NCBI GenBank assembly: GCA_016699935.1
Contig: CP064992.1
Span: forward strand, 1-32,000
Length of the DNA stretch: 32,000 bases
Direction of reading: 5' to 3'
DNA from: Candidatus Saccharimonadota bacterium
Lineage (GTDB): Bacteria; Patescibacteriota; Saccharimonadia; Saccharimonadales; UBA4665
In this document: positions 1-32,000 of the stretch, piece by piece
Layout of the letters: each line of letters begins with the position of its first letter
Numbering within the stretch: the first letter of the stretch is position 1
Notes under the pieces: model-generated
What the model saw: the letters and a program-made list of their open reading frames with translations, nothing else
The model's database searches: none
What the model was told of the DNA's origin: nothing
Program-made: the position numbers and the translations under genes

Positions 1-1603
1 GTAACTCGCGTGGCAGCTTATCGAAGCCATACAGACGTCCCACTTCCTCGACGATATCTTCGGGGAGGTCAATGTCAGTCCTCCAAAATGGCGGCTGAAT
101 CTTGATAGATGTATCATGAATCGTGCAGGTAAATTCAACGTTTTCGAGCAGCATTTGTATCTGCTGAACATCCAGCGCCAAACCAAGTCGGTCGTTTATA
201 AACTGACTCGACACTTCGACTTCTTGATTCTTGATTCTTGATTCTAGATTCCACTCGTCAAAGACATTCGATGCCTGTGAGCCACCTGCGACGTCAAAAA
301 CTGACTGCATGAGCAGGGCGATGATTCGGTCATTCTGCAGTGGTGACTGGCCTTTATTGAAACGAGTCAATGCATCGGTGAAAAGGCCGTGTCGCATGCT
401 ACTTTTGCGCACGGTGTACATATCGAAATTGGCGACTTCGAGCACGATATTTTTGGTACTCGCCGAGACTTCACTATTGCCACCACCCATGATGCCACCC
501 AGACCAACGGGACCTTCGCCGTCGACGATGACGATATCATCTGCCTCGAGCGTATATGTTTTGCCGTTTAAGAGCGGGAGTTGTTCACCCTGTTTAGCCA
601 TCCGTGCGCCAATCTTATGACCGCGGAGCTTGTCGTAGTCATAGGCGTGAGTCGGTTGGGCAGTGAGAAGCATGACGTAGTTTGTGACATCGACGATGTT
701 GTTGATGGGTTTGCCGCCCATAGCGACGAGTGCGCATTGCAACCAAAGTGGGCTGGGTTTAATCTCGATGTCTTTGATAGCGACCGCCATAAAGCGTGGA
801 ACTTTGTCTCCTGCGTCATTACTGACCGTTAACTCCAGTTGCTTGTCATTCTGAGCGGAGCCGCTACCAAGCGGCGAAGCCGAAGAATCTTCCGCTGCGT
901 TAGGAGAAGATTCCTCCGCTACGGTCGGAATGACAGGATGCAGGTACCATTCTGGGCTGACGAATGGCTGCTGTTGTATGCCTGCAATCTCGCGCGCTAC
1001 ACCGAGCTGACCAAAGAGGTCAGGACGATGGGTAAACATTTTGTTTTCTATGTCGATAATTGTGTCATCCAGCCCATACGCACGGGCAAAGTCCACCCCG
1101 GGTGCAATTTCTACCCCTGTCGGCTTCCACTCCGTTGTATCAATTTCCACTATGCCGTCGTGGTTGTCACCTATAGCGAGTTCGGCTGAGCTAGCCAGCA
1201 TGCCGTTACTTTCGACGCCACGGATTTTGCGCACATCGAGCACAAACGGCTCTTTGTCGAAACTAGCCGGTACGGTGGCGCCGGGTGGCAGCCAGGCGAC
1301 GAACATATCGGCGTGGACGTTTGGAGCGCCGCAGACGACCTGGATGAGGTTTGACGGTAGGCGTTCGACGGTAGGGGGTAAGGGGTAATCACCGATGTCG
1401 ATTTCACAGACATGCAAATGGTCACTATCCGGGTGTGGTTCGCACTTGACCACTTTTGCGATAACAATGCCCTTGTATTTTGCGCCAATATCTACGACTT
1501 CCTCGACGCCGCCCAACTGTTCGTTAATACGAGCAACTAGCTCATCTACGGGTGGTAGCTCGAAATTAACGTACTGGCGTATAGTATTGAGTGAAACTTT
1601 CAT
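1..1603 (-). CDS. pheT: Phenylalanine--tRNA ligase beta subunit (N-terminal ~534 aa; 3' end lies beyond the left edge)
   Basis: Absent from the ORF track because it runs off the window. Manual minus-strand translation from ATG 1603 is open to nt 1: MKVSLNTIRQYVNFELPP...VVKCEPHPDSDHLHVCEIDIG...VDVTNYVMLLTAQPTHAYDYDKL...GGIMGGGNSEVS. These are tRNA-binding, B3_4 and B5 type signatures. It lies directly downstream of pheS. Confidence 0.9.
   Translation of the reverse strand, partial: MKVSLNTIRQYVNFELPPVDELVARINEQLGGVEEVVDIGAKYKGIVIAKVVKCEPHPDSDHLHVCEIDIGDYPLPPTVERLPSNLIQVVCGAPNVHADMFVAWLPPGATVPASFDKEPFVLDVRKIRGVESNGMLASSAELAIGDNHDGIVEIDTTEWKPTGVEIAPGVDFARAYGLDDTIIDIENKMFTHRPDLFGQLGVAREIAGIQQQPFVSPEWYLHPVIPTVAEESSPNAAEDSSASPLGSGSAQNDKQLELTVSNDAGDKVPRFMAVAIKDIEIKPSPLWLQCALVAMGGKPINNIVDVTNYVMLLTAQPTHAYDYDKLRGHKIGARMAKQGEQLPLLNGKTYTLEADDIVIVDGEGPVGLGGIMGGGNSEVSASTKNIVLEVANFDMYTVRKSSMRHGLFTDALTRFNKGQSPLQNDRIIALLMQSVFDVAGGSQASNVFDEWNLESRIKNQEVEVSSQFINDRLGLALDVQQIQMLLENVEFTCTIHDTSIKIQPPFWRTDIDLPEDIVEEVGRLYGFDKLPREL
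221..248. repeat. Tandem heptamer array (TTCTTGA x3 + TTCTAGA) inside the pheT coding sequence
   Basis: Direct reading. On the coding strand it is GAATCAA-type units translated as NLESRIKNQEV. The pheT frame stays open through it. Confidence 0.8.
845..934. mobile_element. MITE-like palindromic element, 90 bp, termini GTCATTC...GAATGAC, inserted in frame in pheT
   Basis: Terminal inverted repeat plus an internal hairpin GCCGCT-ACCA-AGCGGC. Same family as intergenic copies at 4330, 11894, 20818 and 22092. 90 bp = 30 codons (VIPTVAEESSPNAAEDSSASPLGSGSAQND). Confidence 0.7.
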
Positions 1604-3111: not shown

Positions 3112-3119
3112 TGGTACAT

Positions 3120-3148
3120 AGTATACAGAGTTAAGAGTGAAGAGTTAA
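3120..3148 (-). promoter_or_regulatory. Putative leaderless-type promoter of pheS (TTAACT-N17-TATACT, 8 nt before the ATG)
   Basis: Minus-strand reading: -35 TTAACT (3148-3143), 17-nt spacer, -10 TATACT (3125-3120), ATG at 3111. No Shine-Dalgarno. The same hexamers and spacing occur at yajQ and DUF475. Confidence 0.5.
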
Positions 3149-3154
3149 GAGTTA
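3127..3154. repeat. Tandem heptamer array AGAGTTA/AGAGTGA x4
   Basis: Direct reading. It is the reverse complement of the CTCTTAA array at 5117-5165 and contains the pheS -35 hexamer. Confidence 0.8.
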
Positions 3155-5116: not shown

Positions 5117-5165
5117 CTCTTAACTCTTAACTCTTAACTCTTAACTCTTAACTCTTAACTCTTAA
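5117..5165. repeat. Perfect tandem heptamer array CTCTTAA x7
   Basis: Direct reading. It lies in the divergent hpt / yajQ intergenic region. Confidence 0.95.
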
Positions 5166-5176
5166 AGCAGTATACT
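5148..5176 (+). promoter_or_regulatory. Putative leaderless-type promoter of yajQ (TTAACT-N17-TATACT, 7 nt before the ATG)
   Basis: -35 TTAACT at 5148-5153 (inside the heptamer array), -10 TATACT at 5171-5176, ATG at 5184. No Shine-Dalgarno. Confidence 0.5.
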
Positions 5177-5183
5177 AGAAACT

Positions 5184-6277: not shown

Positions 6278-7668
6278 ATGAGCGAAAACGAGCTAGATGA
6301 ATTAAAAGTTGAAGAGGTGCTGACTGAGCAAGAAGTTGCAGACGTAGAGCAGCATGCTCAGCTGCCACTTGACGAGCAAGCTCGACTAATCCTGCGTGCA
6401 AACGACAGAGGTAATTACACCATCCCAGCCGAAAACCTGTACCCGCACCAATGGTTATGGGATAGCTGTTTTCGTAGCGATTGGCCTGCGCCATATTGAT
6501 GTCGACCGCGCCCAAACCGAACTGCTTGAGCCTCGTAAAGGCCAGTGGAGTAATGGCATGCTGCCAAACATGATTTTCAGTAACGAACCAGAATACCGCC
6601 GCGATAGAGAGTTCTGGCGAAGCTGGATAAGCCCCTACTCGCCCGATGGTATCGCCACCAGTGGTATCACACAGCCACCCATGCTTGCCGAAGCGGTCTG
6701 GCAGGTCGGCCAGAAATTGTCGCTTGCAGAGCGACGAGGATGGTACCAGCAGCTGATGCTGCCACACATCGTTTCGTATCATGAATGGCTCTACCGCGAA
6801 CGCGACCCGCACGATGAAGGGCTTGTTCTGTTGTTGCACCCATGGGAGTGCGGCCTCGATAATACTCCCCCTGGACATCCGAGCTCCACGAACACATTAT
6901 GCCGGCTTGGATTCGGTTTATCCGCTGGACTCGACTGGATGGAGTCATCGGTTTCTTCCGACGCGATCGACACTATATACCGCCTGGCCAACGCCTTTCC
7001 ACACTCGAGACACTGAGCTATTTTGATGCACAGCGCCGCTTGCGTCGGAAAGCGTACGATTCTCTCAAAATTCTTGACCACGGGCTGTTTAGTATAGAAG
7101 ACCTCACCTTTAACTGCATCTTCATCCGTGCCAATGAACGACTGCGTGATATTGCTCGCACCCTGCATCATGAACTGCCTGACGACCTGCAGCAACACAT
7201 GGAAAAAAGCGAACGCGCCCTGCATGAGCTGTATGACCCATATAGCAAAACTTACTGGTCACGTGACTTTATCACCCACCGCCTCCTAAAGCAACCGAGC
7301 ATTGCCGCCCTCATGCCGCTCTACGCCGGAGTGCTCACAAAAGAACAAGCTGAACACCTAGTAAAACAGCTCGAAAATGAACACATCTTTGGCCCAGCTT
7401 TTCCGGTACCAAGCGTGCCGCTTGACAGCCCCAGTTTAACCCCGATCTGTACTGGCAAGGTCCAACCTGGGTCAACACCAACTGGCTCATCATCGATGGT
7501 TTGCGGCGAGCTGGCTACAAAGACCACGCCGATGCACTCACCGAAACCACTCTCGACATGGTGCGCCGCAGCGGCTTCGCCGAATATTTTGACCCCGTCA
7601 CTGGCGAACCCCTCGGTGCCCAAAACTTCTCCTGGACCGCCGCTTTAGTTATTGATTTAATTAAGTAG
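6278..7668 (+). pseudogene. GH63-like (alpha/alpha)6 glycoside hydrolase (amylo-alpha-1,6-glucosidase / mannosylglycerate-hydrolase-like), three frameshifts
   Basis: Motifs across frames: YPHQWLWDSCF, HPWECGLDNTPPW, GPTWVNTNWLIIDGL, FAEYFDPVTGEPLGAQNFSWTAA. Shifts lie near 6470 (T run), 6870 (C run) and 7435 (T run). Start taken at ATG 6278, 9 nt after a TATACT box; ATG 6257 is the alternative. Confidence 0.75.
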
Positions 7669-10255: not shown

Positions 10256-10288
10256 TGAACCGTAAACTTGATAAAAGGAGTTATTTTT

Positions 10289-11419
10289 ATGGTCAAGAAA
10301 AGTTCTATCAAGGTTGCAGTGGTGGGTGTGGGAAACTGTTTTTCTTCGCTGTACCAAGGGTTTGAATATTACCGGGAGCACAAGGAAGATAACATACCGG
10401 GTATCATGTACGCTGATATCGGGGGCTACCGGACGAGTGACATAGATGTGGTTGCGGCTTTTGATGTCGACCCACGAAAAGTTGGCAAACCAGTTGGCAA
10501 GGCGATTTTTGCCAAGCCAAACTGCGCTAGAGTGTTTCAAGCAAAGGTTCCGGCTGGACCGGTGGTACAAATGGGCAATCCACTCGACGGCGTGTCTGAC
10601 TATATGAAAGAGCAGCCCGAAGAACTCGGCTTTCGCGTCGCCAAGCTCAAGACTGTTGATGTCGTAAAAGTGCTGAAAGATACCAAAGCCGACATACTTA
10701 TCAACTACCTTCCGGTAGGCTCACAGGAAGCAACTGAGTTTATGCCCAGTGCGCGATAGATGCTGGCATAGCGTTTCTAAACTGCATCCCAGTTTTCATC
10801 GCCAGCGACCCGAAGTGGGAGAAAAATTCATCGATGCTGGCCTACCAATTATCGGCGATGACATGCGCAGCCAAATTGGTGCCAGTGTCGTTAGCCAGGT
10901 CTTGCAAGAGCTTGCCTTTGACCGTGGTGCCGAAGTCGAGTTTCACCAGCAACTCAACATTGGTGGCAATACCGACTTCAACAACATGATGGTGCAGTCG
11001 CGCCTCGCTAGCAAAAAATTAGCAAAGAAAATGTCATCCGCGCCCAAACCGCCATCCGTGGTATAGCCGTGCCAGAGCACAGCCTATTTGCTGGTCCTAG
11101 CACTTACCTGCCCTACCTGAAGGATAACAAGGTTGCGTACTTCAATATCCGCCTCCGTGGCTTTGGTGGTGCACCGATAACGATGGACTTGAAACTCTCT
11201 GTCCAAGACAGCGAAAACAGTGCCGGTGTAGTGATAGACGCTATCCGCTACTTGAAAGTTGCCCGCGAGCTAGGTGTCGTTGGTGCCCTGCGTGGTCCAA
11301 GTGCCTGGACCCAAAAAACTCCGCCAGAACAAATGATGTACACCGACGCCAAACGCGAGTGCGAAGCCCTCGCCAAACGCCAACTGACTTCTAGCGTAAA
11401 GAAGCAAGTAAAGAAATAA
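10289..11419 (+). pseudogene. ino1: Inositol-3-phosphate (myo-inositol-1-phosphate) synthase, three 1-nt deletions
   Basis: SD AAAGGAG lies 8 nt before ATG 10289. The pieces join to KVAVVGVGNCFSSLYQG...[63 protein letters not shown]...-ISKENVIRAQTAIRGIAVPEHSLFAGPS...LSVQDSENSAG. The shifts are at a T run near 10740 and at the A runs 10822-10826 and 11013-11018. Confidence 0.85.
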
Positions 11420-11550
11420 AGAATTTTCAAAGTTTCAATTCACGAATTTACAGAAAATTTTCAAAGTTAAAGATTACAAACACCCAACACGCAGTCGGAG
11501 GCCGCTGGGAGTAAGCGTCATAAGGCAAGATAGAGATAAGAGATAAGAGC

Positions 11551-11833
11551 GCGGCCGTGAGGCCGCAAGTAAACCGTCGCGCGAGTGACATAGCTAAGAC
11601 GAGCATGCGGAGTCACCCGGCTACCATGTTGCCCAGGCTTTGCAACTTCCGTCAGGCGGCAAAACTTGTTTGAGTGAAAGGTAGGTTGCCAGTGGCAACC
11701 TACCTGGAGCGAGTTGTTTTGTCGGTTGCAAAACTGACAACCTGGTACCGATTGACGGAGCTCTGCTCTTGATCTTTGCCCAGCTTTGCATCAAGGCAAA
11801 GCTGGTCGGCTAACAGTCCGAGAACTGCCGAGT
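11551..11833 (+). repeat. Structured intergenic element, copy A (candidate ncRNA or non-autonomous element)
   Basis: About three-quarters identical to 21734-22041 by eye, and shares blocks with 20440-20757 and 31475-31682. Hairpins: GCGGCC-GTGA-GGCCGC, GGTAGGTTGCC/GGCAACCTACC, CAGCTTTGC/GCAAAGCTG, and terminal CAG-TCCGAGAA-CTG. No conserved ORF. Confidence 0.8.
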
Positions 11834-11893
11834 GAGTAAGGCTAAGTGAGACTGTCAGGTGTAGTGAGTGTACAGAAACTAGAGCAAGCGTAT

Positions 11894-11977
11894 GGATTCC
11901 CGCCGGAGTTTATCTCAACTCGGTTGGGGACGGGAATGACAAGCTCGAGGAAGGTTCTTCACTTCGTTCAGAATGAC
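11894..11977. mobile_element. MITE-like modules: GGATTCCCG-long loop-CGGGAATGAC hairpin plus GGTTCTTC..TTCGTTCAGAATGAC half element
   Basis: Same modules in the same order follow copies B and C (22092-22147, 20818-20878). Confidence 0.7.
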
Positions 11978-12042
11978 AAGATGGTAGTGAGTGGTGACGT
12001 ATGGATACTGAAATGAATACAGGATGGTGGAAAGTAGGGCTT

Positions 12043-12089
12043 CGATTCCCGCCGGGTTTATCCTCAACTCGGTTGGGGACGGGAACGAC
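12043..12089. mobile_element. Second copy of the long-loop CGATTCCCG...CGGGAACGAC hairpin
   Basis: Near-identical to 11894-11940, including the inner stem CCGG(A)GTT...AACTCGG. Confidence 0.7.
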
Positions 12090-12127
12090 AGACTAAAGAT
12101 GTGACTTCAATCGAGATGGCATAAGGC

Positions 12128-13218: not shown

Positions 13219-14094
13219 TTAATCGTGGTTTTCGTGGTCATTGTCAGCATGATCGCCAACAGTACTATGCTGAGCATGCTCGCTTGCCGTCTCTTCATGA
13301 ACGTGGCCAGCGTCAATATACTTATGCGCTATCTGAACCGCAAACAGCACAGTAACGATGCCGCCTATCAGTAGTAGTGGCTGCCAGTCAACAAATTTAC
13401 CGCCTTTATCGTGTTTGTGCAGTTCTGGGATTATGTCGCTCATTGCAATGTAAAGCAGAAAACCTGCACTCAGACCGATGAGTATGCCCATGGGCAACTT
13501 TTCTGTGCTACCGATAGCAAACGTCAGCACCGCCATAACTGTCGTTGCGAGAGCGCTAAGCGCGTTCACTAGAAGTGCTCGTCCACGTGACAACCCTTTG
13601 TGAAGCATCAGTCCAAAGTCCCCAATCTCTTGAGGAATCTCGTGTGCCGCGACTGCAATAGTCGTCACAATACCGGTTGGCACACTTATGAGAAAAGAAG
13701 CGGCGATCGCTACACCGTCAAGTGCATTATGTACAGTATCACCCGCTATGATGAGTGGCAGTGAACTATCGTGATGCTTGGATACGTGCTTACCTTCATC
13801 TTCTCGGTGGTGATGGTGAAACCAGTGTATGAATCGTTCCATAAGGTAAAACAGTACAATTCCAACGACGGTCGAGACCATGAGTGTTCGCACTGGTGAT
13901 TCTTCAACCCCTTCCGAAAGAAGATCGAAAAAAACTGCCCCTATGAGTGCTCCTGCCGCAAATGGTGTCGCATACTTGGCTAAGGCTAGCGCAGTGCGCT
14001 CCCGGCTTACCAGCAAGGCGCCCACGAGCAGCGAAAACAGCCCTCCAATAAGTGAGAAAAATATAATGTGTCCATAATTTGCCATAATTTGCAT
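13219..14094 (-). CDS. ZIP family divalent-metal (zinc) transporter with His-rich loop and tail
   Basis: 291-aa intact ORF with HEIPQEIGDFGLML, HNALDGVAIAASF, loop HWFHHHHREDEGKH and tail HAQHSTVGDHADNDHENHD. ATG 14085, which has an AAGGA 8 nt upstream, is an alternative start. Confidence 0.85.
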   Translation of the reverse strand: MQIMANYGHIIFFSLIGGLFSLLVGALLVSRERTALALAKYATPFAAGALIGAVFFDLLSEGVEESPVRTLMVSTVVGIVLFYLMERFIHWFHHHHREDEGKHVSKHHDSSLPLIIAGDTVHNALDGVAIAASFLISVPTGIVTTIAVAAHEIPQEIGDFGLMLHKGLSRGRALLVNALSALATTVMAVLTFAIGSTEKLPMGILIGLSAGFLLYIAMSDIIPELHKHDKGGKFVDWQPLLLIGGIVTVLFAVQIAHKYIDAGHVHEETASEHAQHSTVGDHADNDHENHD

Positions 14095-20349: not shown

Positions 20350-20439
20350 CCTAGTTTTATTTTCAGGCGGGAGACATCAAACGATTAAACGTTCAATGTT
20401 CAAGTTGTCAAGAAACTATCATCACTCAACTTTCAACGC

Positions 20440-20757
20440 GCAGCCATGAGGTCCGCTAGAAATCATCGCGAAGCGATATAGCCAGAATAGAGGGTGATGC
20501 GCCGTGAGTGCTTTCCTCGACGCTGTAAGGGGTCGCCTCTTGGGGTACCGGGTGCATAACGACTGATTTGAAATTTCTTTTGGACTGCTTGCGTGACGAG
20601 AATGTTTGACCCTCGCTTAAAGGCGGGGAGTTTCGAGAGGAACCAAACAGGTCAAAAGAAATTTCAAGTAAGCCGGTCGTTTGCATTCTCCACGGCGGTT
20701 TACTCTCATTTTGTCCGTACAAATGAGCCGCCCAGCAGGTGCGGGAACCTGCGGAGG
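20440..20757 (+). repeat. Structured intergenic element, copy C
   Basis: Shares the TCGCG..AGCGATATAGCC block with A and B. Shares GGGGTACCGGGTGCATAACGACTGATTTGAAATTTC...AAGTAAGCCGGTCGTTTGCA with D. Terminal hairpin GCAGG-TGCGGGAA-CCTGC. The 5' boundary is approximate. Confidence 0.75.
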
Positions 20758-20817
20758 AATAAGAAGGTTAGTGAGAGTGTTATGTATTGTTTATACACAA
20801 ACGTCGAAAAAGCACAT

Positions 20818-20878
20818 GGATTCCCGCCTGCGCGGGAATGACAAGCGCGTGGAAGATTCTTCGATGCGTTCTTAATGA
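20818..20878. mobile_element. MITE-like modules: GGATTCCCGC-CTGC-GCGGGAATGAC hairpin plus GGAAGATTCTTC..GCGTTCTTAATGA half element
   Basis: 8-bp stem with a tetraloop. Same order and spacing as after copies A and B. Confidence 0.7.
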
Positions 20879-21013
20879 AAATAATAGGATTTTCTAACGC
20901 TTGAAATATGATACAATCTGAGTAATTACGAAAGCTTGTCGGGCATGCTTTATGCCGAGCGAGGATGTGGCACACAGTATAAAAATAACACCCTAACTTG
21001 AGGATTATATTGT

Positions 21014-21698
21014 ATGCCTAAAACGAAAAATTACCGCTACTATGACCTGGCGGTGGCGGCTAGTGTCGCGACGCTTATTATTTCCAACCTGGGTGCCATG
21101 AAACTTATCGCTATCGGCCCGATTATTTCTGATGGCGGGGCGCTGCTCTTCCGCTCGCTTACATACTGGGCGATGTTATGACGGAAGTGTACGGCTACAA
21201 ATACACACGCCGCGCCATTTGGGTGAGTTTTTCTGGCTTCTCGCTTATGATAGCCGTACTCACCGCAGTGCAAAGCGCTGCCCTCTGTCGCGGGCGCACC
21301 GAATGTAAGTGAGTTCAACACCGTCTTTGGTTTTGTGCCTCGTATAGTGGCTGCAAGCCTTGTGGCGTACCTAGTGGGCGAATTTGTAAATTCGTTTGTC
21401 CTTGCAAAATGAAAGTTCGCAGTCAAGGTAAGCGGCTTTGGCAGCGACTTGTTGCATCGACACTGCTCGGTGAGGCCATAGACACAACCATCTTCTGCAT
21501 GGTGGCTTTTATGGGCTTATTACAGGCAGCCAGATGGTAAATTACATATTGGTTGGCATCGTTTTTAAAGTAACCGTTGAATCCATAATGCTCCCCGTGA
21601 CCTACCGCGTTATAGCCTGGCTAAAGCACAAAGAAAACGAAGACCACTACGACAAAAAGACGAATTTCAACCCGCTCTCAGTTCAGTTAGACGACTAG
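21014..21698 (+). pseudogene. yhhQ: Queuosine-precursor transporter (YhhQ / DUF165, VUT family), several frameshifts
   Basis: MPKTKNYRYYDLAVAASVATLIISNLGAMKLIAIGPIISDGGALLF-PLAYILGDVMTEVYGYKYTRRAIW..., later PRIVAASLVAYLVGEFVNSFVLAKMKV and ...VTYRVIAWLKHKENEDHYDKKTNFNP in other frames. The first shift is at a C run near 21150. Confidence 0.75.
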
Positions 21699-21733
21699 CT
21701 GAGCTGGAATCATGAACTTTCGAATCATGAAAT

Positions 21734-22041
21734 GCGGCCGCAGGCCGCAAGAAAACCGTCGCGCCAGCGATATAGCTAAGACGAATGGCATGCGGAGTCA
21801 CCTGGCTCCATGTCAGTCTGCACACCCTGTCGTGCTTCTGCAACTTCCGTGGCGATTGGCAAAACTTGTTTGAGATGATGGAAGCGTGCCAGTGGCAACC
21901 TACCTTGGAGCGAAAGAAAAGTTTTGTCGGTTGCGAAACCCTGACAACCTGGTACCGATTGAGCGGGTTTCCTTTTTTGAGGCTCGCCCCCCTCTTTGCA
22001 TCAAAGCAAGCTGGTCGGCTTAGCAGCCCTGAACTGCCGAT
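21734..22041 (+). repeat. Structured intergenic element, copy B
   Basis: Collinear with copy A from the 5' hairpin GCGGCC-GCA-GGCCGC to the terminal hairpin CAG-CCCTGAA-CTG followed by CCGATG. Starts 36 nt after the yhhQ stop. Confidence 0.8.
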
Positions 22042-22091
22042 GAATTAAATTGAGTGAGGCTTTCAACTGCGCACAGTTACAAGCACAGCTT

Positions 22092-22147
22092 GGATTCCGG
22101 CAGCGCGGGAATGACAAGCCATGGCGGATTCTGCGCTTCGTTCGAAC
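22092..22147. mobile_element. MITE-like modules: GGATTCCGG-CAG-CGCGGGAATGAC hairpin plus GGCGGATTCTGCGCTTCGTTCGAAC half element
   Basis: Homologous to 20818-20878 and 11894-11977. Confidence 0.65.
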
Positions 22148-22194
22148 CGGCGGGTCGCCGCCGCTTCGCAGCGGTGCCTGCGGCAACAGTGAGT

Positions 22195-23412
22195 TTATGT
22201 ACGTCCGTGGTAGTACCGTGAGAGCCAGACGTCGCGGAAGGCGTAGAACGTGCCGTCTTCTATACTGGCGCGCATTTGATCAACAAGCCCCACAATGAAA
22301 TGCTCATTGTGGATAGACATGAGTGTATTTGCCAGTAGCTCCTTGGCGCGGAACAGGTGCTGCACGTACGCCCGGGTGTAATTTTGGCACGTATAACAGA
22401 GGCAGTCTTCGAGCAACGGGGTGAAATCTTCTTTGTACATGGCGCCGCGAATGTTCTTACGTCCTTCAAAAGTATAGAACGCACCGTTACGCCCAACGCG
22501 GGTCGGTGACACGCAGTCAAGCGTATCGACACCATTTTCAACCGCCGCAAACATGTCGTCCGGCTCGCTTATACCTAGCATGTGCTTTGGCCGGTCTTCC
22601 GGCAGTATCTCGTTGCACCACCGCACAATTTCACCCAGCCGTTGTTTTTCTATAGCCCCACCTATGCCATAGCCATCAAAATCCCGCTCGGCCATCCAGG
22701 CAGCGGTTTCGCGCCGTAAATCCTCGTAGTTTGCCCCCTGCAAAACTCCAAAAACGGCCTGGTAAGGTCTTTCTGGGTGCAGTGCGCGTAACCTTTGCAT
22801 TTCTTTTAGGCAACGTTCTGCCCACGGCTGCGTTCGAATGCGCATGGATTCGCATTGATATTCATAGCCGTCAAATAGTGATGTCAGCTCATCGAACGCA
22901 AAACACATATCGGCACCAATCCCGTGCTGTACCTGCATGCTATGCTCTGGTGTAAAACGGCGCATGGAACCGTCGAGGTATGACTTAAAGTTCACCCCGT
23001 CGTCATCTACCCAAGCCTGTCGCTCCTTGCGCGGCGCGATAACATCGTCGGCGACAATACCTTCCACTTCCATGCTGAGCGTTTTTTTGAAACCGCTGCC
23101 AAGTGAAAGCACCTGAAATCCACCGCTGTCGGTGTACGTCGGACAATTCCAGTTCGCAAACTTCGCCAGCCCACCCGCCTTCTCGATCAGTTCTTGTCCT
23201 GGCTGTAAATACAGGTGATAGGCGTTTGCCAGCATGACCTGGGCACCCGTCGCATGAACTTGCTCTGGAGTCATAGCTTTCACACTTGCCTTGGTGCCAA
23301 CCACAACAAACGCCGGCGTTTGTATGTCGCCATGCGGGGTATGAATCACACCCGTCCGAGCAAGAGTACCACTCAGCCGAGCTCGAACCTCGTAGTAAAA
23401 TGGTTTTTTCAT
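22195..23412 (-). CDS. tgt: Queuine/preQ tRNA-guanine transglycosylase
   Basis: From the internal ATG 23412: MKKPFYYEVRARLSGTLARTGVIHTPHGDIQTPAFVVVGT, TDSGGFQV, the zinc site CLCYTCQNYTRAYVQHL, and IHNEHF. The track ORF extends in frame to 23763 through a DUF475 C-terminal segment. Confidence 0.9.
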   Translation of the reverse strand: MKKPFYYEVRARLSGTLARTGVIHTPHGDIQTPAFVVVGTKASVKAMTPEQVHATGAQVMLANAYHLYLQPGQELIEKAGGLAKFANWNCPTYTDSGGFQVLSLGSGFKKTLSMEVEGIVADDVIAPRKERQAWVDDDGVNFKSYLDGSMRRFTPEHSMQVQHGIGADMCFAFDELTSLFDGYEYQCESMRIRTQPWAERCLKEMQRLRALHPERPYQAVFGVLQGANYEDLRRETAAWMAERDFDGYGIGGAIEKQRLGEIVRWCNEILPEDRPKHMLGISEPDDMFAAVENGVDTLDCVSPTRVGRNGAFYTFEGRKNIRGAMYKEDFTPLLEDCLCYTCQNYTRAYVQHLFRAKELLANTLMSIHNEHFIVGLVDQMRASIEDGTFYAFRDVWLSRYYHGRT

Positions 23413-24464
23413 TTTCAATTCGCCAGAATCAAGCTTCTGCCGGACGCGAACTGATGCTGCCATAGAAGCCCCGATTATACCTATACCTGCTAACCCTGGC
23501 ACCAGCTCCGGCACATGCCAAAGCGCGCTAAAGAGCATGATTAAAGCTAGAACAAACACCGTATAGTGAGCCCCGTGCTCTAGATAGACAAAGTTTTTCA
23601 GCGTCCCACGCCGCACCATAAAGACCGTCATGGAACGAACCCAAATAGCGCCTATGCCAAGTCCGGCTGCAATGAGGACAACGTTACTCGTAATAGCAAA
23701 AGCGCCGATCACGCCGTCAAAACTAAAGCTGGCGTCGAGTATTTCAAGATACACAAAACTCATAAACGCAGCCAGGCCTACCTGTTTTACGGCTGATTTT
23801 TTGCATCAATTCCTTGATATTTTTCTATAAACAATATTGCGCCGTGTATAAGCAGGTATGTAAGAGTTCCGAAGCCACCCGCCAGAAGCGTAGTTCTCGT
23901 GTGGGTGTTTACGGGCAAGGCAGCGACTGAAAATAGCACTGCGGTCGTAACTGCAGACGGCCACGCCCAATGCGTTAGTTTTTTCATATGTTTTTCTATG
24001 TGTTTGATCCACATAGTGTCACGCTCGTCGCTAAAGAAAAAGTGAAAAGCAAGCATCAGCAAAAATGCACCACCGTATGCCGAAATAGTTGGATGCGCTT
24101 CTTCTAGGTGATGAGCGTATTCCTTGGGGTTATTGAGCGCTAGATCAAGCACTGTTTTCCAGCCTAGGTCTGCCGTTATTGAAACAATGAGTATGGGAAA
24201 AATAACCCGCATACCAAAAATTGCAATAAAAATACCGACTGTCAGAAAAAGCATTTGCCAAAACGGACTCATTCGCTCGAGTATTTTGGCGTTAATGATG
24301 GCGTTGTCGAAGCTAAAGGTTAGCTCAACAATCATCAGTATAATAGTCACAAACAGGGCACCCCAGCCTAACCCCCAGACTATTCCTATCAGTGTCGCAA
24401 TGGTTGCAGAAACTGAAAAAGCAAATATACGGAACGCTGAGTGTGGGTGGAAAATATGTTTCAT
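23413..24464 (-). pseudogene. DUF475 (TerC-like) integral membrane protein: one frameshift and no stop codon before tgt
   Basis: N-terminal part is 23787-24464 (ELTFSFDNAIINAKILERM). The C-terminal part starts at 23763 (YLEILDASFSFDGVIGAFAIT...YLEHGAHY). The two join if the T run 23797-23802 (A run on the coding strand) is one base longer. The C-terminal part runs in frame into the tgt ATG. Confidence 0.7.
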
Positions 24465-24471
24465 TCTGGGT

Positions 24472-24500
24472 AGTATACAGATTTATGAGCCAAGAGTTAA
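24472..24500 (-). promoter_or_regulatory. Putative leaderless-type promoter of the DUF475 gene (TTAACT-N17-TATACT, 7 nt before the ATG)
   Basis: Minus-strand reading: -35 TTAACT (24500-24495, within AAGAGTT heptamers), -10 TATACT (24477-24472), ATG at 24464. Confidence 0.5.
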
Positions 24501-24525
24501 GAGCTGAGGAAAATTATGCTGGATA

Positions 24526-31427: not shown

Positions 31428-31462
31428 AAATATATTTCCGGAATAAATCCGGAAATATATTT
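31428..31462 (+). terminator. 15-bp perfect hairpin AAATATATTTCCGGA-ATAAA-TCCGGAAATATATTT (terminator candidate for the LysM gene)
   Basis: Direct reading. The AT-rich stem has a GC core and is followed by CGTTTATT. Confidence 0.45.
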
Positions 31463-31474
31463 CGTTTATTGAAC

Positions 31475-31682
31475 TGTCGCTTTCAGCGACAAAACTTGGA
31501 AAGAGGCTGGTATGCAGTGAGTGCTCACTGCGATGCTGCATAAGGTTATCCCTGGGTACCGGGGATGCATAACGACTGATTTGAAATTTCAAGTAAGCCG
31601 GTCGTTTGCACTCTCCCCGGCAGCTTTGTCCAACTTTGGCTGCCCAAAGTTGGTCGACACGGCAGTCCGAGAACTGCCGATG
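31475..31682 (+). repeat. Structured intergenic element, copy D (minimal version)
   Basis: 5' hairpin TGTCGC-TTTCA-GCGACA plus an A tract. GGGTACCGGGGATGCATAACGACTGATTTGAAATTTCAAGTAAGCCGGTCGTTTGCA is shared with C. The terminal hairpin CGGCAG-TCCGAGAA-CTGCCG has a loop identical to A. Confidence 0.75.
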
Positions 31683-31847: not shown

Positions 31848-32000
31848 TTAAGTAGATAGGTTAGGATCATCTTGTGGCGCATAGACGGCGTCTTGTGGCG
31901 CATTGACGGCGTCTTGTGGCGTACCGACAACTTTTCTTGCATGTCCAACGATGACCCACAAGGCACTAACAGCACTGCTATGGTTCGTGCGTCGTTCGTC
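31848..32000 (-). CDS. C-terminal end of a membrane protein (5' part beyond the right edge) with a tandem heptapeptide tail
   Basis: The minus-strand frame is open from nt 32000: DERRTNHSSAVSALWVIVGHARKVVGTPQDAVNAPQDAVYAPQDDPNLST, stop at 31848-31850. The track ORF 31784-31975 is in a different frame and reads through the repeat as a low-complexity peptide. Confidence 0.45.
   Translation of the reverse strand, partial: DERRTNHSSAVSALWVIVGHARKVVGTPQDAVNAPQDAVYAPQDDPNLST
31871..31933. repeat. 21-bp tandem repeat x3 (CTTGTGGCGCATWGACGGCGT)
   Basis: Direct reading. It encodes the (A/T)PQDAV(N/Y) repeats of the partial minus-strand CDS. Confidence 0.85.

Follow-up and report, generated by a model that had tools for sequence, protein, structure and literature searches.

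Candidate modular, strand-specific structured elements within mosaic intergenic repeats of Saccharimonadales

What are the hairpin-rich sequences that recur between the genes of a Candidatus Saccharimonadota bacterium: structured RNAs, mobile repeats, or both at once? The question is raised by the first 32,000 nucleotides (nt) of contig CP064992.1, hereafter the window. An earlier note, made from the letters of the window, had pointed out four intergenic copies (A to D) of what it took for an undescribed structured RNA or a non-autonomous element, with the plus strand as the RNA. This hedged reading is supported by the null result against Rfam 15, by covariation, by strand-specific folding energies and by the comparison of orthologous sites. 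We read the copies more specifically as uncatalogued, modular and strand-specific structured elements, which would lie within mosaic repeats resembling REP (repetitive extragenic palindromic) sequences, BIMEs (bacterial interspersed mosaic elements) and NIMEs (neisserial intergenic mosaic elements), and which would be made as plus-strand RNA 3' of the upstream gene; we give this reading a probability of about one half. Genomes of Saccharibacteria and the candidate phyla radiation (CPR) measure about 1 Mb and are regarded as streamlined, with few repeats and few known regulatory RNAs. Several intergenic regions of the window are filled by composites of 400-900 nt that are non-coding and highly structured, and the family is shared and conserved among several genomes.

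The window copies and their relatives

Copies A (11551-11834), C (20438-20757), B (21734-22041) and D (31475-31682) are present where the note had placed them, contain the sequence blocks it had listed and share one orientation. Repeated sequence in the window falls into families of 43-66 nt with 79-100% identity. A and B, which we call the alpha type, match each other with a blastn E-value of 2e-51; C and D, the beta type, do so with E-values of 2e-11 and 5e-12. The two types have no full-length BLAST link and are joined via shared modules. On the plus strand, these follow each other from 5' to 3' as P0, P1, a single-stranded motif, a rod, P5, P6, a linker and small hairpins, and each may be present, absent or swapped as a whole. 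Element size accordingly ranges from about 110 nt in a mini version to about 400-520 nt with all modules and trailing hairpins. The 5' module P0-P1 of B matches a beta copy in L010, a locus of a related genome (blastn E = 1.5e-8; nhmmer 9e-8), and an 18-mer (CAGTCCGAGAACTGCCGA) is identical in A and D.

P0, an optional module, is a GC hairpin of the form GCGGCC-N3-4-GGCCGC. P1 reads GUCGC-NNNN-GCGAC followed by AUARCUA; it has a GNRA loop in several copies, and its stem varies between G-C, G-U and A-U pairs. The note had regarded the 5' hairpin of D (TGTCGC/GCGACA) as the counterpart of the GCGGCC hairpin P0; it is instead homologous to the second of the listed blocks, P1 (GTCGC-NNNN-GCGAC). 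Likewise, the block GGTACCG is invariant inside the window as claimed, but not beyond it, as relatives show GGAACCG, TTTCCG or GCTGACC.

About 12 more copies were recovered from independent NCBI, JGI, ENA and Logan assemblies along two routes. One was synteny, in which the neighbourhoods of TGT homologues gave occupied as well as unoccupied orthologous sites; the other used profiles of antisense translations, which led to eight spurious proteins and thereby to five more loci. Alpha-type copies occur at the yhhQ-tgt site, and at the ino1-rmuC site (cut by the locus end), in L004 and L013, and furthermore in L007, L017 (3' of rplL), L018 (beside a PGA_cap gene) and L019 (beside purC). Beta-type copies occur in L004 (kef-yhhQ site), L010 (yhhQ-tgt and kef-yhhQ sites), L020 and L021 (ino1 site), that of L020 (CP065016.1) being the most complete of all. 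The family is carried by the genomes CP065016.1 and JGI Ga0558719_00012 and was found only in a subset of Saccharimonadales genomes.

Pattern scans added little to this set. With the 3' pattern TGGTCG..CAGYCC..GAACTGCCGA, genome contigs gave two chance matches, one of them clearly intragenic and neither with the rest of the element; there are relatives that lack TGGTCG, so this pattern was too narrow. Metagenome contigs scanned with an alpha-core pattern contained one true match (L007) besides two chance matches, viral contigs scanned with beta and alpha patterns contained zero, and a complete composite had no blastn match among plasmids and phages. As to the high genomic copy number expected by the note, the densities may hint at it: four copies were counted in the 32-kb window, three in 21 kb of L004, two in 6.4 kb of L010 and none in 21 kb each of L003 and L014. 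Over about 150 kb of related loci, a biased sample, there were 0-0.3 copies per kb.

A sceptic might attribute the family to a chance likeness among GC-rich terminator hairpins or to a noisy, frameshift-rich assembly, and the window does contain many broken genes. ino1 (10268-11419) is split into three pieces by frameshifts, yhhQ (21016-21700) is frameshift-broken, DUF475 and tgt (22195-24464) are fused through a frameshift, and a further gene at 6396-7648 is split or fused in the same way. None of these frameshifts is present in relatives, which suggests a homopolymer-error-prone assembly rather than pseudogenes. Copy B, located in a window full of frameshifted genes, therefore probably has indel errors, and it folds no better than shuffled sequence, with a z-score of the minimum free energy (MFE) of +0.2 as plus-strand RNA, compared with -4.9 for A, -3.3 for C and -6.2 for D. 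However, homologous copies exist in at least six independent assemblies from the four sources named above, which excludes an assembly artefact, and the E-values between copies reach down to 2e-51, with covariation far above controls (see below). Chance or artefact is excluded as the source of the similarity.

A protein-coding reading was rejected as well. Antisense open reading frames (ORFs) of 83-177 amino acids exist; the trailing hairpin is read in different frames across copies (VISTAVERS vs HLDRSGEIS), and the best-conserved antisense stretch has about 63% amino-acid identity (counted by hand), below its nucleotide identity of 75%. A Pfam search of the antisense ORFs and the plus-strand frames matched no family, which speaks against a degenerated tnpB or comparable gene as well. 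The statement of the note that no ORF is conserved between the copies is thus borne out. The antisense strand of the elements is often stop-free, and gene callers have therefore deposited spurious "hypothetical proteins" in NCBI, JGI and ENA: eight entries of 67-177 amino acids (P0121-P0128, e.g., NCBI IPP75_05935 and WAW63_00335) are antisense translations of the element and almost certainly spurious gene calls. Such public entries should be flagged accordingly.

Equally, no known RNA family accounts for the elements. The whole window gave no match to Rfam 15 at gathering score, in agreement with the note, which could not place the copies by eye, and four copies (A, that of L017 and both of L010) searched at E <= 10 returned only noise (E >= 0.5, at least 25 bits under the gathering scores). 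This null result covers RNase P, tmRNA, SRP, 6S, riboswitches, HEARO, ROOL, GOLLD, OLE, group I and II introns and ribozymes. Group II introns were considered separately, including the ORF-less class C type that inserts after hairpins in the same orientation, and were rejected: the elements are without domain V or VI, the Intron_gpII and group-II D1-D4 models gave no match at E <= 10, and the 5' ends are GCGGCC or GUCGC hairpins, not GUGYG. Literature searches on noncoding RNAs, repeats or RAYTs (REP-associated tyrosine transposases) of Saccharibacteria or Patescibacteria found nothing relevant. The family is uncatalogued in this sense, being absent from Rfam 15 and from the descriptions found in the literature.

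Base pairing and strand

Strong covariation is seen in two independent alignments. One covers 59 pairs of the 5' domain in 7 alpha copies; 93.9% of its cells are in standard pairs, and 20 of the 59 pairs change on both sides. In the beta alignment (7 copies, 70 pairs), 96.6% are paired and 20 of the 70 pairs show both-sided changes. In both cases, 0 of 500 column shuffles match the observed pairing, both-sided changes and covariation score, where it must be kept in mind that seven copies per alignment, some of them closely related, make this control overstate the significance. When the 3' partners are shifted by 1-3 columns, 33-53% of the alpha cells stay paired, with 1-3 both-sided pairs; slid controls in beta give 0-6 both-sided pairs. 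These slid controls and the two alignments agree with each other despite the small, partly related samples. Covariation is particularly distinct in the middle of the beta rod: pairing there is 98.9%, and both-sided changes affect 12 of 19 pairs. Between the changing stems, the unpaired motifs CAUGCGGA, CAACUUCCG and UUGUUUGA are invariant.

The pairing has a preferred strand. The MFE of the RNA is lower on the plus than on the minus strand in 13 out of 14 copies, by 7-30 kcal/mol, the exception being the noisy copy B. Moreover, beta copies contain near-invariant G-U pairs (alignment columns 226-329, 223-336, 77-94 and 112-122), which would be A-C mismatches on the opposite strand and therefore point to the plus strand. 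Compensatory changes above controls and a preferred strand, taken as a generic mark of a structured functional RNA, are both seen here. As judged from these comparisons, plus-strand base pairing including the conserved G-U pairs is shown to be under selection, as expected of RNA, and an RNA is the most economical reading of it.

P1 is followed by a conserved single-stranded stretch; alpha copies have CAUGCGGA there, and beta copies have CUGCAGUGAGUGCU together with a small hairpin. The alpha rod spans about 140-160 nt. Its CAACUUCCG..AGGCG bulge is invariant, and it further comprises the internal loop UUGUUUGAR / GAGUU and a hairpin at the apex. The beta rod is closed by the stem UGCAUAACGACUGAUUUG / CAAGUAAGCCGGUCGUUUGCA, and its apex motif YUGUUUGA ... 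GUGAGUU resembles that of alpha. Stem sequence in the rods is free to vary, while the motifs of bulge and apical loop (CUUCCG..AGGCG; YUGUUUGA...GAGUU) are retained. An alpha-rod covariance model misses the beta rods at default filters and gives a weak match of 9.9 bits with the filters off. P5 and P6 occur in two sequence versions of one shape, the first in A, B, D and L010-C, the second in C, L010-B, L004-C and L020. The linker carries GUGAGACUG and is followed by one to several hairpins of the form GGAU-stem-loop-stem-AUGAC(R)(R)G.

Whole modules may be there or missing: D is without the rod apex and L004-C without the whole rod, an extra module of about 90 nt (GAGAGCCGCC..GGAACGUAGC) is found in L004-C and L020 and also in the alpha copies L007 and L004-A, and the mini version in L006 (about 110 nt, at the yhhQ-tgt site) consists of P0, P1 and a GGCCAUGUGGAGG core. 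RNAalifold suggested a long-range pairing of P0 with GGCCAUGCGG; it is broken in the window copies, and P0 was therefore kept as a local hairpin.

Repeat behaviour, trailing hairpins and competing explanations

The same elements behave as a repeat family. Orthologous sites show presence, absence and mini versions: the yhhQ-tgt site is occupied by an alpha copy in the window and in L004, by a beta copy in L010 and by the mini version in L006, with nothing recognisable in L003 and L014, and the ino1 site holds an alpha copy in the window and a beta copy in L021. A block of 231 nt is exactly identical between L018 (beside the PGA_cap gene) and L004 (yhhQ-tgt site), despite which the two copies differ in P0/P1 and in their 3' parts; another block of 109 nt is identical between L020 and L021. 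Differing module sets at orthologous sites together with identical blocks at different loci imply that segments were copied or exchanged between loci. As far as copies can be compared across loci, they are thus shown to behave as a repeat family and not as independently evolving single-copy genes.

Known mobile elements do not fit, though. [quoted passage not shown] A candidate target-site duplication, GAAATTTC, seemed to border the rod segment by which C exceeds D; it reflects stem pairing, given that L010-C shows another complementary stem. The R'/R'' consensus of integron attC sites is absent. An element derived from IS200/IS605 (palindrome-associated transposable element, PATE) or a TnpB omega-RNA was dismissed because the end hairpins are unrelated and tnpB does not adjoin any of the eight independent sites. 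An IS110 bridge RNA was dismissed for lack of a recombinase gene and, by eye, of consistent loop-to-flank complementarity; a gene for a DEDD recombinase is found neither in the window nor in the roughly 150 kb of related loci. Finally, the large module is not itself a REPIN (a doublet of inverted REPs): its rods are hairpins of 45-160 nt with conserved asymmetric bulges, and the element as a whole has at least five separate helices.

The small hairpins behind the elements are a different matter. The note had counted a GGATTCCCG...CGGGAATGAC hairpin as part of a composite unit. It does follow A, B and C, but it is a separate small palindromic unit, which is also found on its own away from the large element: at 12044-12090, within pheT at 838-937 and across many unrelated bacteria. 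The inverted repeat dRS3 of neisserial intergenic mosaic elements reads ATTCCC-N8-GGGAAT (PMC1797815), and window positions 20820-20839 (ATTCCCGCCTGCGCGGGAAT) are a perfect instance of this consensus; variants lie at 11896-11937 and 22094-22112, and arrays are found downstream of A. The palindrome TGGATTCCCGCCTGCGCGGGAATGACAAG (window 20818-20846; L010 4350-4380; L020 9880-9905) equals the Neisseria dRS3 repeat. With a 36-nt query around 20820-20839, matches that are near-identical and multi-copy were obtained from Neisseria, Photobacterium (100% for 29 nt), Novosphingobium, Legionella, Cupriavidus, Azospirillum and others. A paper of 2007 did not see NIME arrays outside Neisseria; the palindrome is present in many Proteobacteria and hence does not define a Neisseria-specific system.

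Small units of this kind also lie within genes. Inside pheT, a minus-strand ORF, an inverted pair (CTTGTCATTC..GAAGAATC and GATTCCTCCGCTACGGTCGGAATGACAGG) occupies window positions 838-937; the frame remains open across it, reads ...PVIPTVAEESSPNAAEDSSASPLGSGSAQNDKQ... and resembles the in-frame insertions of the Rickettsia palindromic element. In L017, a dRS3-like unit (GGATTCCGGGTCAAGCCCGGAATGACGGG, 13279-13308) is located within a gene for a phosphoglucomutase-family protein (PGM_PMM) of 441 amino acids. As a further observation on the trailing hairpins, the recurrent motif CAGGAUG(A/G) and many GGA motifs stand at unpaired or stem-edge positions (e.g., window 12018-12030, L004 11395-11405, L010 3060-3075); they may resemble the CsrA-binding repeats of CsrB-type sponge RNAs.

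A second hairpin type, CGTGAAAGGTCGGAGCTTTCACG, terminates the alpha composites in L004, L013, L017 and L018, in single copy each. In L020 (CP065016.1, 19540-20204), an inverted doublet of this hairpin precedes a RAYT-like Y1_Tnp gene. The hairpin reads CGTGAAAG-N7-CTTTCACG; its doublet is REPIN-like in arrangement and ends 2 nt before the start codon. The gene scores 37 bits against the Pfam model (cut-off 23), and its best NCBIfam match is REP_Tyr_transpos (REP-associated tyrosine transposase) with 40 bits, below the cut-off of 80. By its layout, the doublet with its gene is a classical REP/RAYT arrangement. A palindrome doublet flanking a Y1 gene is seen for the small hairpin CGTGAAAGGTCGGAGCTTTCACG only. 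A search of the literature turned up no description of REP/RAYT systems in the CPR.

These findings bring up the explanation that everything happens at the DNA level. The elements would then be REPIN- or IS200-like, non-autonomous, and moved as plus-strand single-stranded DNA by a Y1 transposase (RAYT/TnpA), and the hairpins would be conserved for recognition by the transposase and through palindrome maintenance, not for an RNA function. Strand-specific structure and the single orientation of the four window copies would fit, as would the associated REP-like hairpins, the RAYT-like gene with its REP doublet in a related genome, mosaic copies with exactly identical blocks at different loci, and the insertion of small hairpin units even within genes; REPIN populations are known to persist with vertical inheritance. 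However, the end hairpins show no sequence relationship to each other, in contrast to the left-end and right-end hairpins of IS200/IS605, and known REPINs are about 100 nt long with two inverted REPs, not 300-nt multi-domain folds with conserved internal loops. The conserved G-U (G-T) pairs and the strand asymmetry of 7-30 kcal/mol, calculated with RNA parameters, fit RNA better, and the window lacks a Y1 gene as well as the REP type beside the RAYT gene. We regard a purely DNA-level origin of the conservation as rather improbable, for the hairpin conservation as well as for the mode of movement.

Another explanation takes the opposite direction and treats the copies as stand-alone genes of a trans-acting RNA, a ribonucleoprotein scaffold or guide, of which they would be orphan or paralogous versions; candidates are an omega-RNA-like partner of TnpB or IscB, an IS110-type bridge RNA, or a new class in the manner of HEARO, ROOL or OLE. 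Members of the IS110 family use bridge RNAs. Co-varying stems with conserved loops and bulges over 200-400 nt typify functional RNAs that are bound by proteins. Several G-U pairs are conserved, the elements have persisted at orthologous sites even between genomes with only 75-78% identity in coding DNA (window vs L010 and L021), and a trailing palindrome has the dRS3 sequence. Like HEARO/IscB omega-RNA, TnpB omega-RNA and IS110 bridge RNA, the elements are 200-400 nt long and rich in hairpins, have conserved internal loops, occur several times per genome and are associated with palindromic target-like sequences. They differ from these in that a nuclease, recombinase, reverse transcriptase or transposase gene does not adjoin any of the eight independent sites, translations of both strands show no trace of a decayed tnpB in Pfam, and Rfam, HEARO included, gives no match.

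Guide-like complementarity was not found either: by eye, the conserved loops show no consistent complementarity to flanks or hairpins. In some copies (A, L017, L019), CAGGCGG of the bulge complements CCGCCUG in the dRS3-type hairpin, but this fails in B and in genomes without a dRS3-type hairpin. Furthermore, whole modules, the rod apex included, are dispensable in D, L004-C and L006, and the promoter scan (see below) was negative. Independent trans-acting RNA genes are possible in our view but appear unlikely. About equally unlikely is a new CPR- or Saccharibacteria-specific class of large structured RNA (about 300-500 nt) serving as the RNA part of a ribonucleoprotein or of an RNA-dependent mobile system. 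Under this speculative reading the element would be no passive repeat and could, for example, be a scaffold or guide which joins a recombinase, of the Y1/RAYT type or another, in working on REP/dRS3-like palindromes, a scenario of the same doubtful standing.

In our preferred reading, structured RNA and mosaic repeat belong together, and known systems offer partial precedents. Enterobacterial BIME/REP clusters and REPIN-RAYT systems are likewise intergenic, multi-copy mosaics of palindromic units and other motifs in fixed order, lie mostly 3' of genes and are kept at orthologous sites; here, the small hairpins trail the composites. They differ in consisting of a palindrome of 20-40 nt or a REP doublet of about 100 nt, whereas the present fold has several hairpins over 200-400 nt, conserved loop motifs and co-varying stems, and the window has no RAYT gene. 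NIMEs share the perfect dRS3, the arrays (downstream of A, with units 30-100 nt apart) and a mosaic module content that differs between syntenic sites. Unlike here, however, their RS elements have 19-214 bp and no reported conserved multi-domain fold, and dRS3 flanks RS on both sides, while the dRS3-like units of this CPR host lie only 3' of the large element.

The ERIC/IRU (enterobacterial repetitive intergenic consensus / intergenic repeat unit), pneumococcal BOX and bcr repeats of the Bacillus cereus group are modular, multi-copy intergenic sequences which are co-transcribed with their neighbours and in which compensatory changes keep RNA hairpins. They are not known to share sequence or architecture with the elements; the present family is larger and has several domains and conserved unpaired motifs. 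All of these systems, BIME/REP and NIMEs included, combine RNA-like with repeat-like traits, yet none is known to have a multi-domain module of 200-400 nt with conserved bulges.

According to this combined reading, the elements would be non-autonomous mosaic repeats of the REP/BIME/NIME kind, transcribed usually together with, or just after, the co-oriented upstream gene. Such a gene lies directly upstream at 7 of 8 independent sites; the exception is L019, where the copy is divergent from purC. The RNA would fold into a multi-hairpin 3' structure and may hinder 3' exonucleases or serve as a terminator or insulator, and its conserved loops could form a binding platform for a putative protein partner. 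Spread and homogenisation may proceed via recombination or single-strand copying that uses the trailing REP-like hairpins, for which the RAYT-like Y1 transposase of the relative is a candidate enzyme. The link of the large module to this enzyme is putative.

Several points weigh against this interpretation. In D and L017, a terminator-like hairpin stands between the upstream gene and the element, so that simple read-through is not assured. Scans for consensus (sigma-70-like) promoters and intrinsic terminators around the elements were negative, with one exception: P0 with the pyrimidine-rich complement of the tract upstream of it is terminator-like on the minus strand. Neither terminal inverted repeats nor target-site duplications are present at the elements. 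The single RAYT-like gene seen belongs to another genome and does not lie beside a large element, and the window lacks both the CGTGAAAGGTCGGAGCTTTCACG hairpin type and a Y1 gene. The homology of alpha and beta rods is weak (9.9 bits), the two alignments comprise small and partly related samples, and a plain exonuclease barrier would need no conserved loop motifs.

The significance depends on which side of the reading carries more weight. If the fold works as an RNA, it would join the small number of large bacterial RNA classes that have covariation support but still lack a name or function, in a lineage that became genetically tractable only recently. If the family is mainly a repeat, mosaics of the REP/BIME/NIME type and a RAYT-like transposase would be extended to the CPR, and the copies would be markers for strain typing and recombination hot spots.

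Details of the copies and surrounding sequence

All copies and their parts are given in plus-strand coordinates of the window. Copy A is directly preceded by a purine-rich (GAGATAA)n tract (11531-11549); comparable (GAGTYAAGA)n tracts are found ahead of the L007 and L017 copies. P0 (GCGGCC-GUGA-GGCCGC, 11551-11566), missing in D and L010-C, is followed by P1 (11576-11589), in which the hairpin GUCGC-GCGA-GUGAC precedes AUAGCUA. The unpaired motif CAUGCGGA at 11603-11610 is invariant in seven out of seven alpha copies. The alpha rod of A is an irregular hairpin of 141 nt (11614-11754) with the bulge CUUCCG..AGGCG at 11647-11656, the internal loop UUGUUUGAG / GAGCGAGUU at 11666-11678 / 11705-11715 and the apical hairpin at 11679-11705.

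P5 of A (CCAGCUUUGC-AUCAAG-GCAAAGCUGG, 11780-11805) abuts UCGG and co-varies with P5 of D (CCAACUUUGG..CCAAAGUUGG). The terminal hairpin P6 (CAG-UCCGAGAA-CUG, then CCGAGUG) occupies 11814-11834. Behind it, the linker with GUGAGACUG (11835-11893) is conserved in A, L010-B, L004-C and L020. It leads to a long-loop dRS3/REP-like hairpin GGATTCCCGCC..GGGAATGACAAG (11894-11943), to a second, degenerate hairpin unit GGTTCT..AGAATGACAAG (11953-11980), which had been described as a half-site, and to two more units, GGATACTGAA..CAGGATGG and GATTCCCGCC..GGGAACGACAG (12003-12090). Together, these trailing units make up a NIME/BIME-like array that reaches the 3' end of rmuC.

Beta copy C (20438-20757) has a degenerate P0, P1 at 20463-20477, a hairpin at 20500-20527, the beta rod at 20553-20685 and the 3' hairpins P5' (20705-20727) and P6' (20735-20752). 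Its trailing part (20758-20880) comprises a GUGAG linker, a dRS3-type hairpin and a degenerate unit GATTCT..GCGTTC; the hairpin is the perfect ATTCCCGCCTGCGCGGGAAT at 20820-20839, followed by GAC, and GGATTCCCG..CGGGAATGAC match 20818-20842. In alpha copy B (21734-22041), P0 (21734-21748), P1 (21758-21771) and the rod (21799-21961) are followed by P5 and P6. The trailing part of B (22042-22150) consists of a GAGUGAG linker, the hairpin ATTCCGGCAGCGCGGGAATGACAAG (22094-22118) and a unit GATTCT..TTCGTTC. Copy D (31475-31682) is a short beta type, without P0 and without trailing hairpins. It comprises P1 (31475-31490), a hairpin (31513-31540), a truncated, apex-less rod (31566-31610), P5 (31630-31653) and P6 (31661-31678). 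The terminator-like hairpin upstream of D lies at 31428-31462, 12 nt ahead of the copy.

The genes of the window follow the order pheT-pheS ... uppP-lysR-ino1-rmuC-zip-fur ... kef-yhhQ-tgt-DUF475-corA ... typA-CNNM-LysM, which is matched in the complete genome CP064993.1 and in several JGI and Logan contigs. In a protein homologue search, the best homologues of the TGT protein were 85-91% identical and named by their sources as Candidatus Saccharibacteria or Saccharimonadales.

Some further observations concern the regions in front of genes. Tracts of (CTCTTAA)n / (GAGTTAAGA)n adjoin a palindromic -10-like box TAGTATAC at 3117-3154, 5117-5177 and 24471-24508. The start codon of pheS comes straight after the box (GTATACTATG), a layout that suggests leaderless transcripts as well as a common upstream promoter element. 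Purine-rich tracts of the same type also precede structured elements, as at 11531-11549.

The yhhQ leader is conserved (TAATTACGAAAGCTYGYSGGGC...GCCGAGCGRGGATGTGGCAC..AGTATA) in the window (20905-21015), L004 (12490-12600) and L010 (4190-4290). It lies downstream of a TGnTACAAT promoter-like box and upstream of yhhQ, the gene of the queuosine-precursor transporter, and is a candidate for a preQ1-type riboswitch; a search of Rfam gave no match for it, E <= 5 included. Downstream of copy D, at 31870-31930, a short tandem direct repeat CTTGTGGCGCAT(A/T)GACGGCGT occurs in 2-3 copies.

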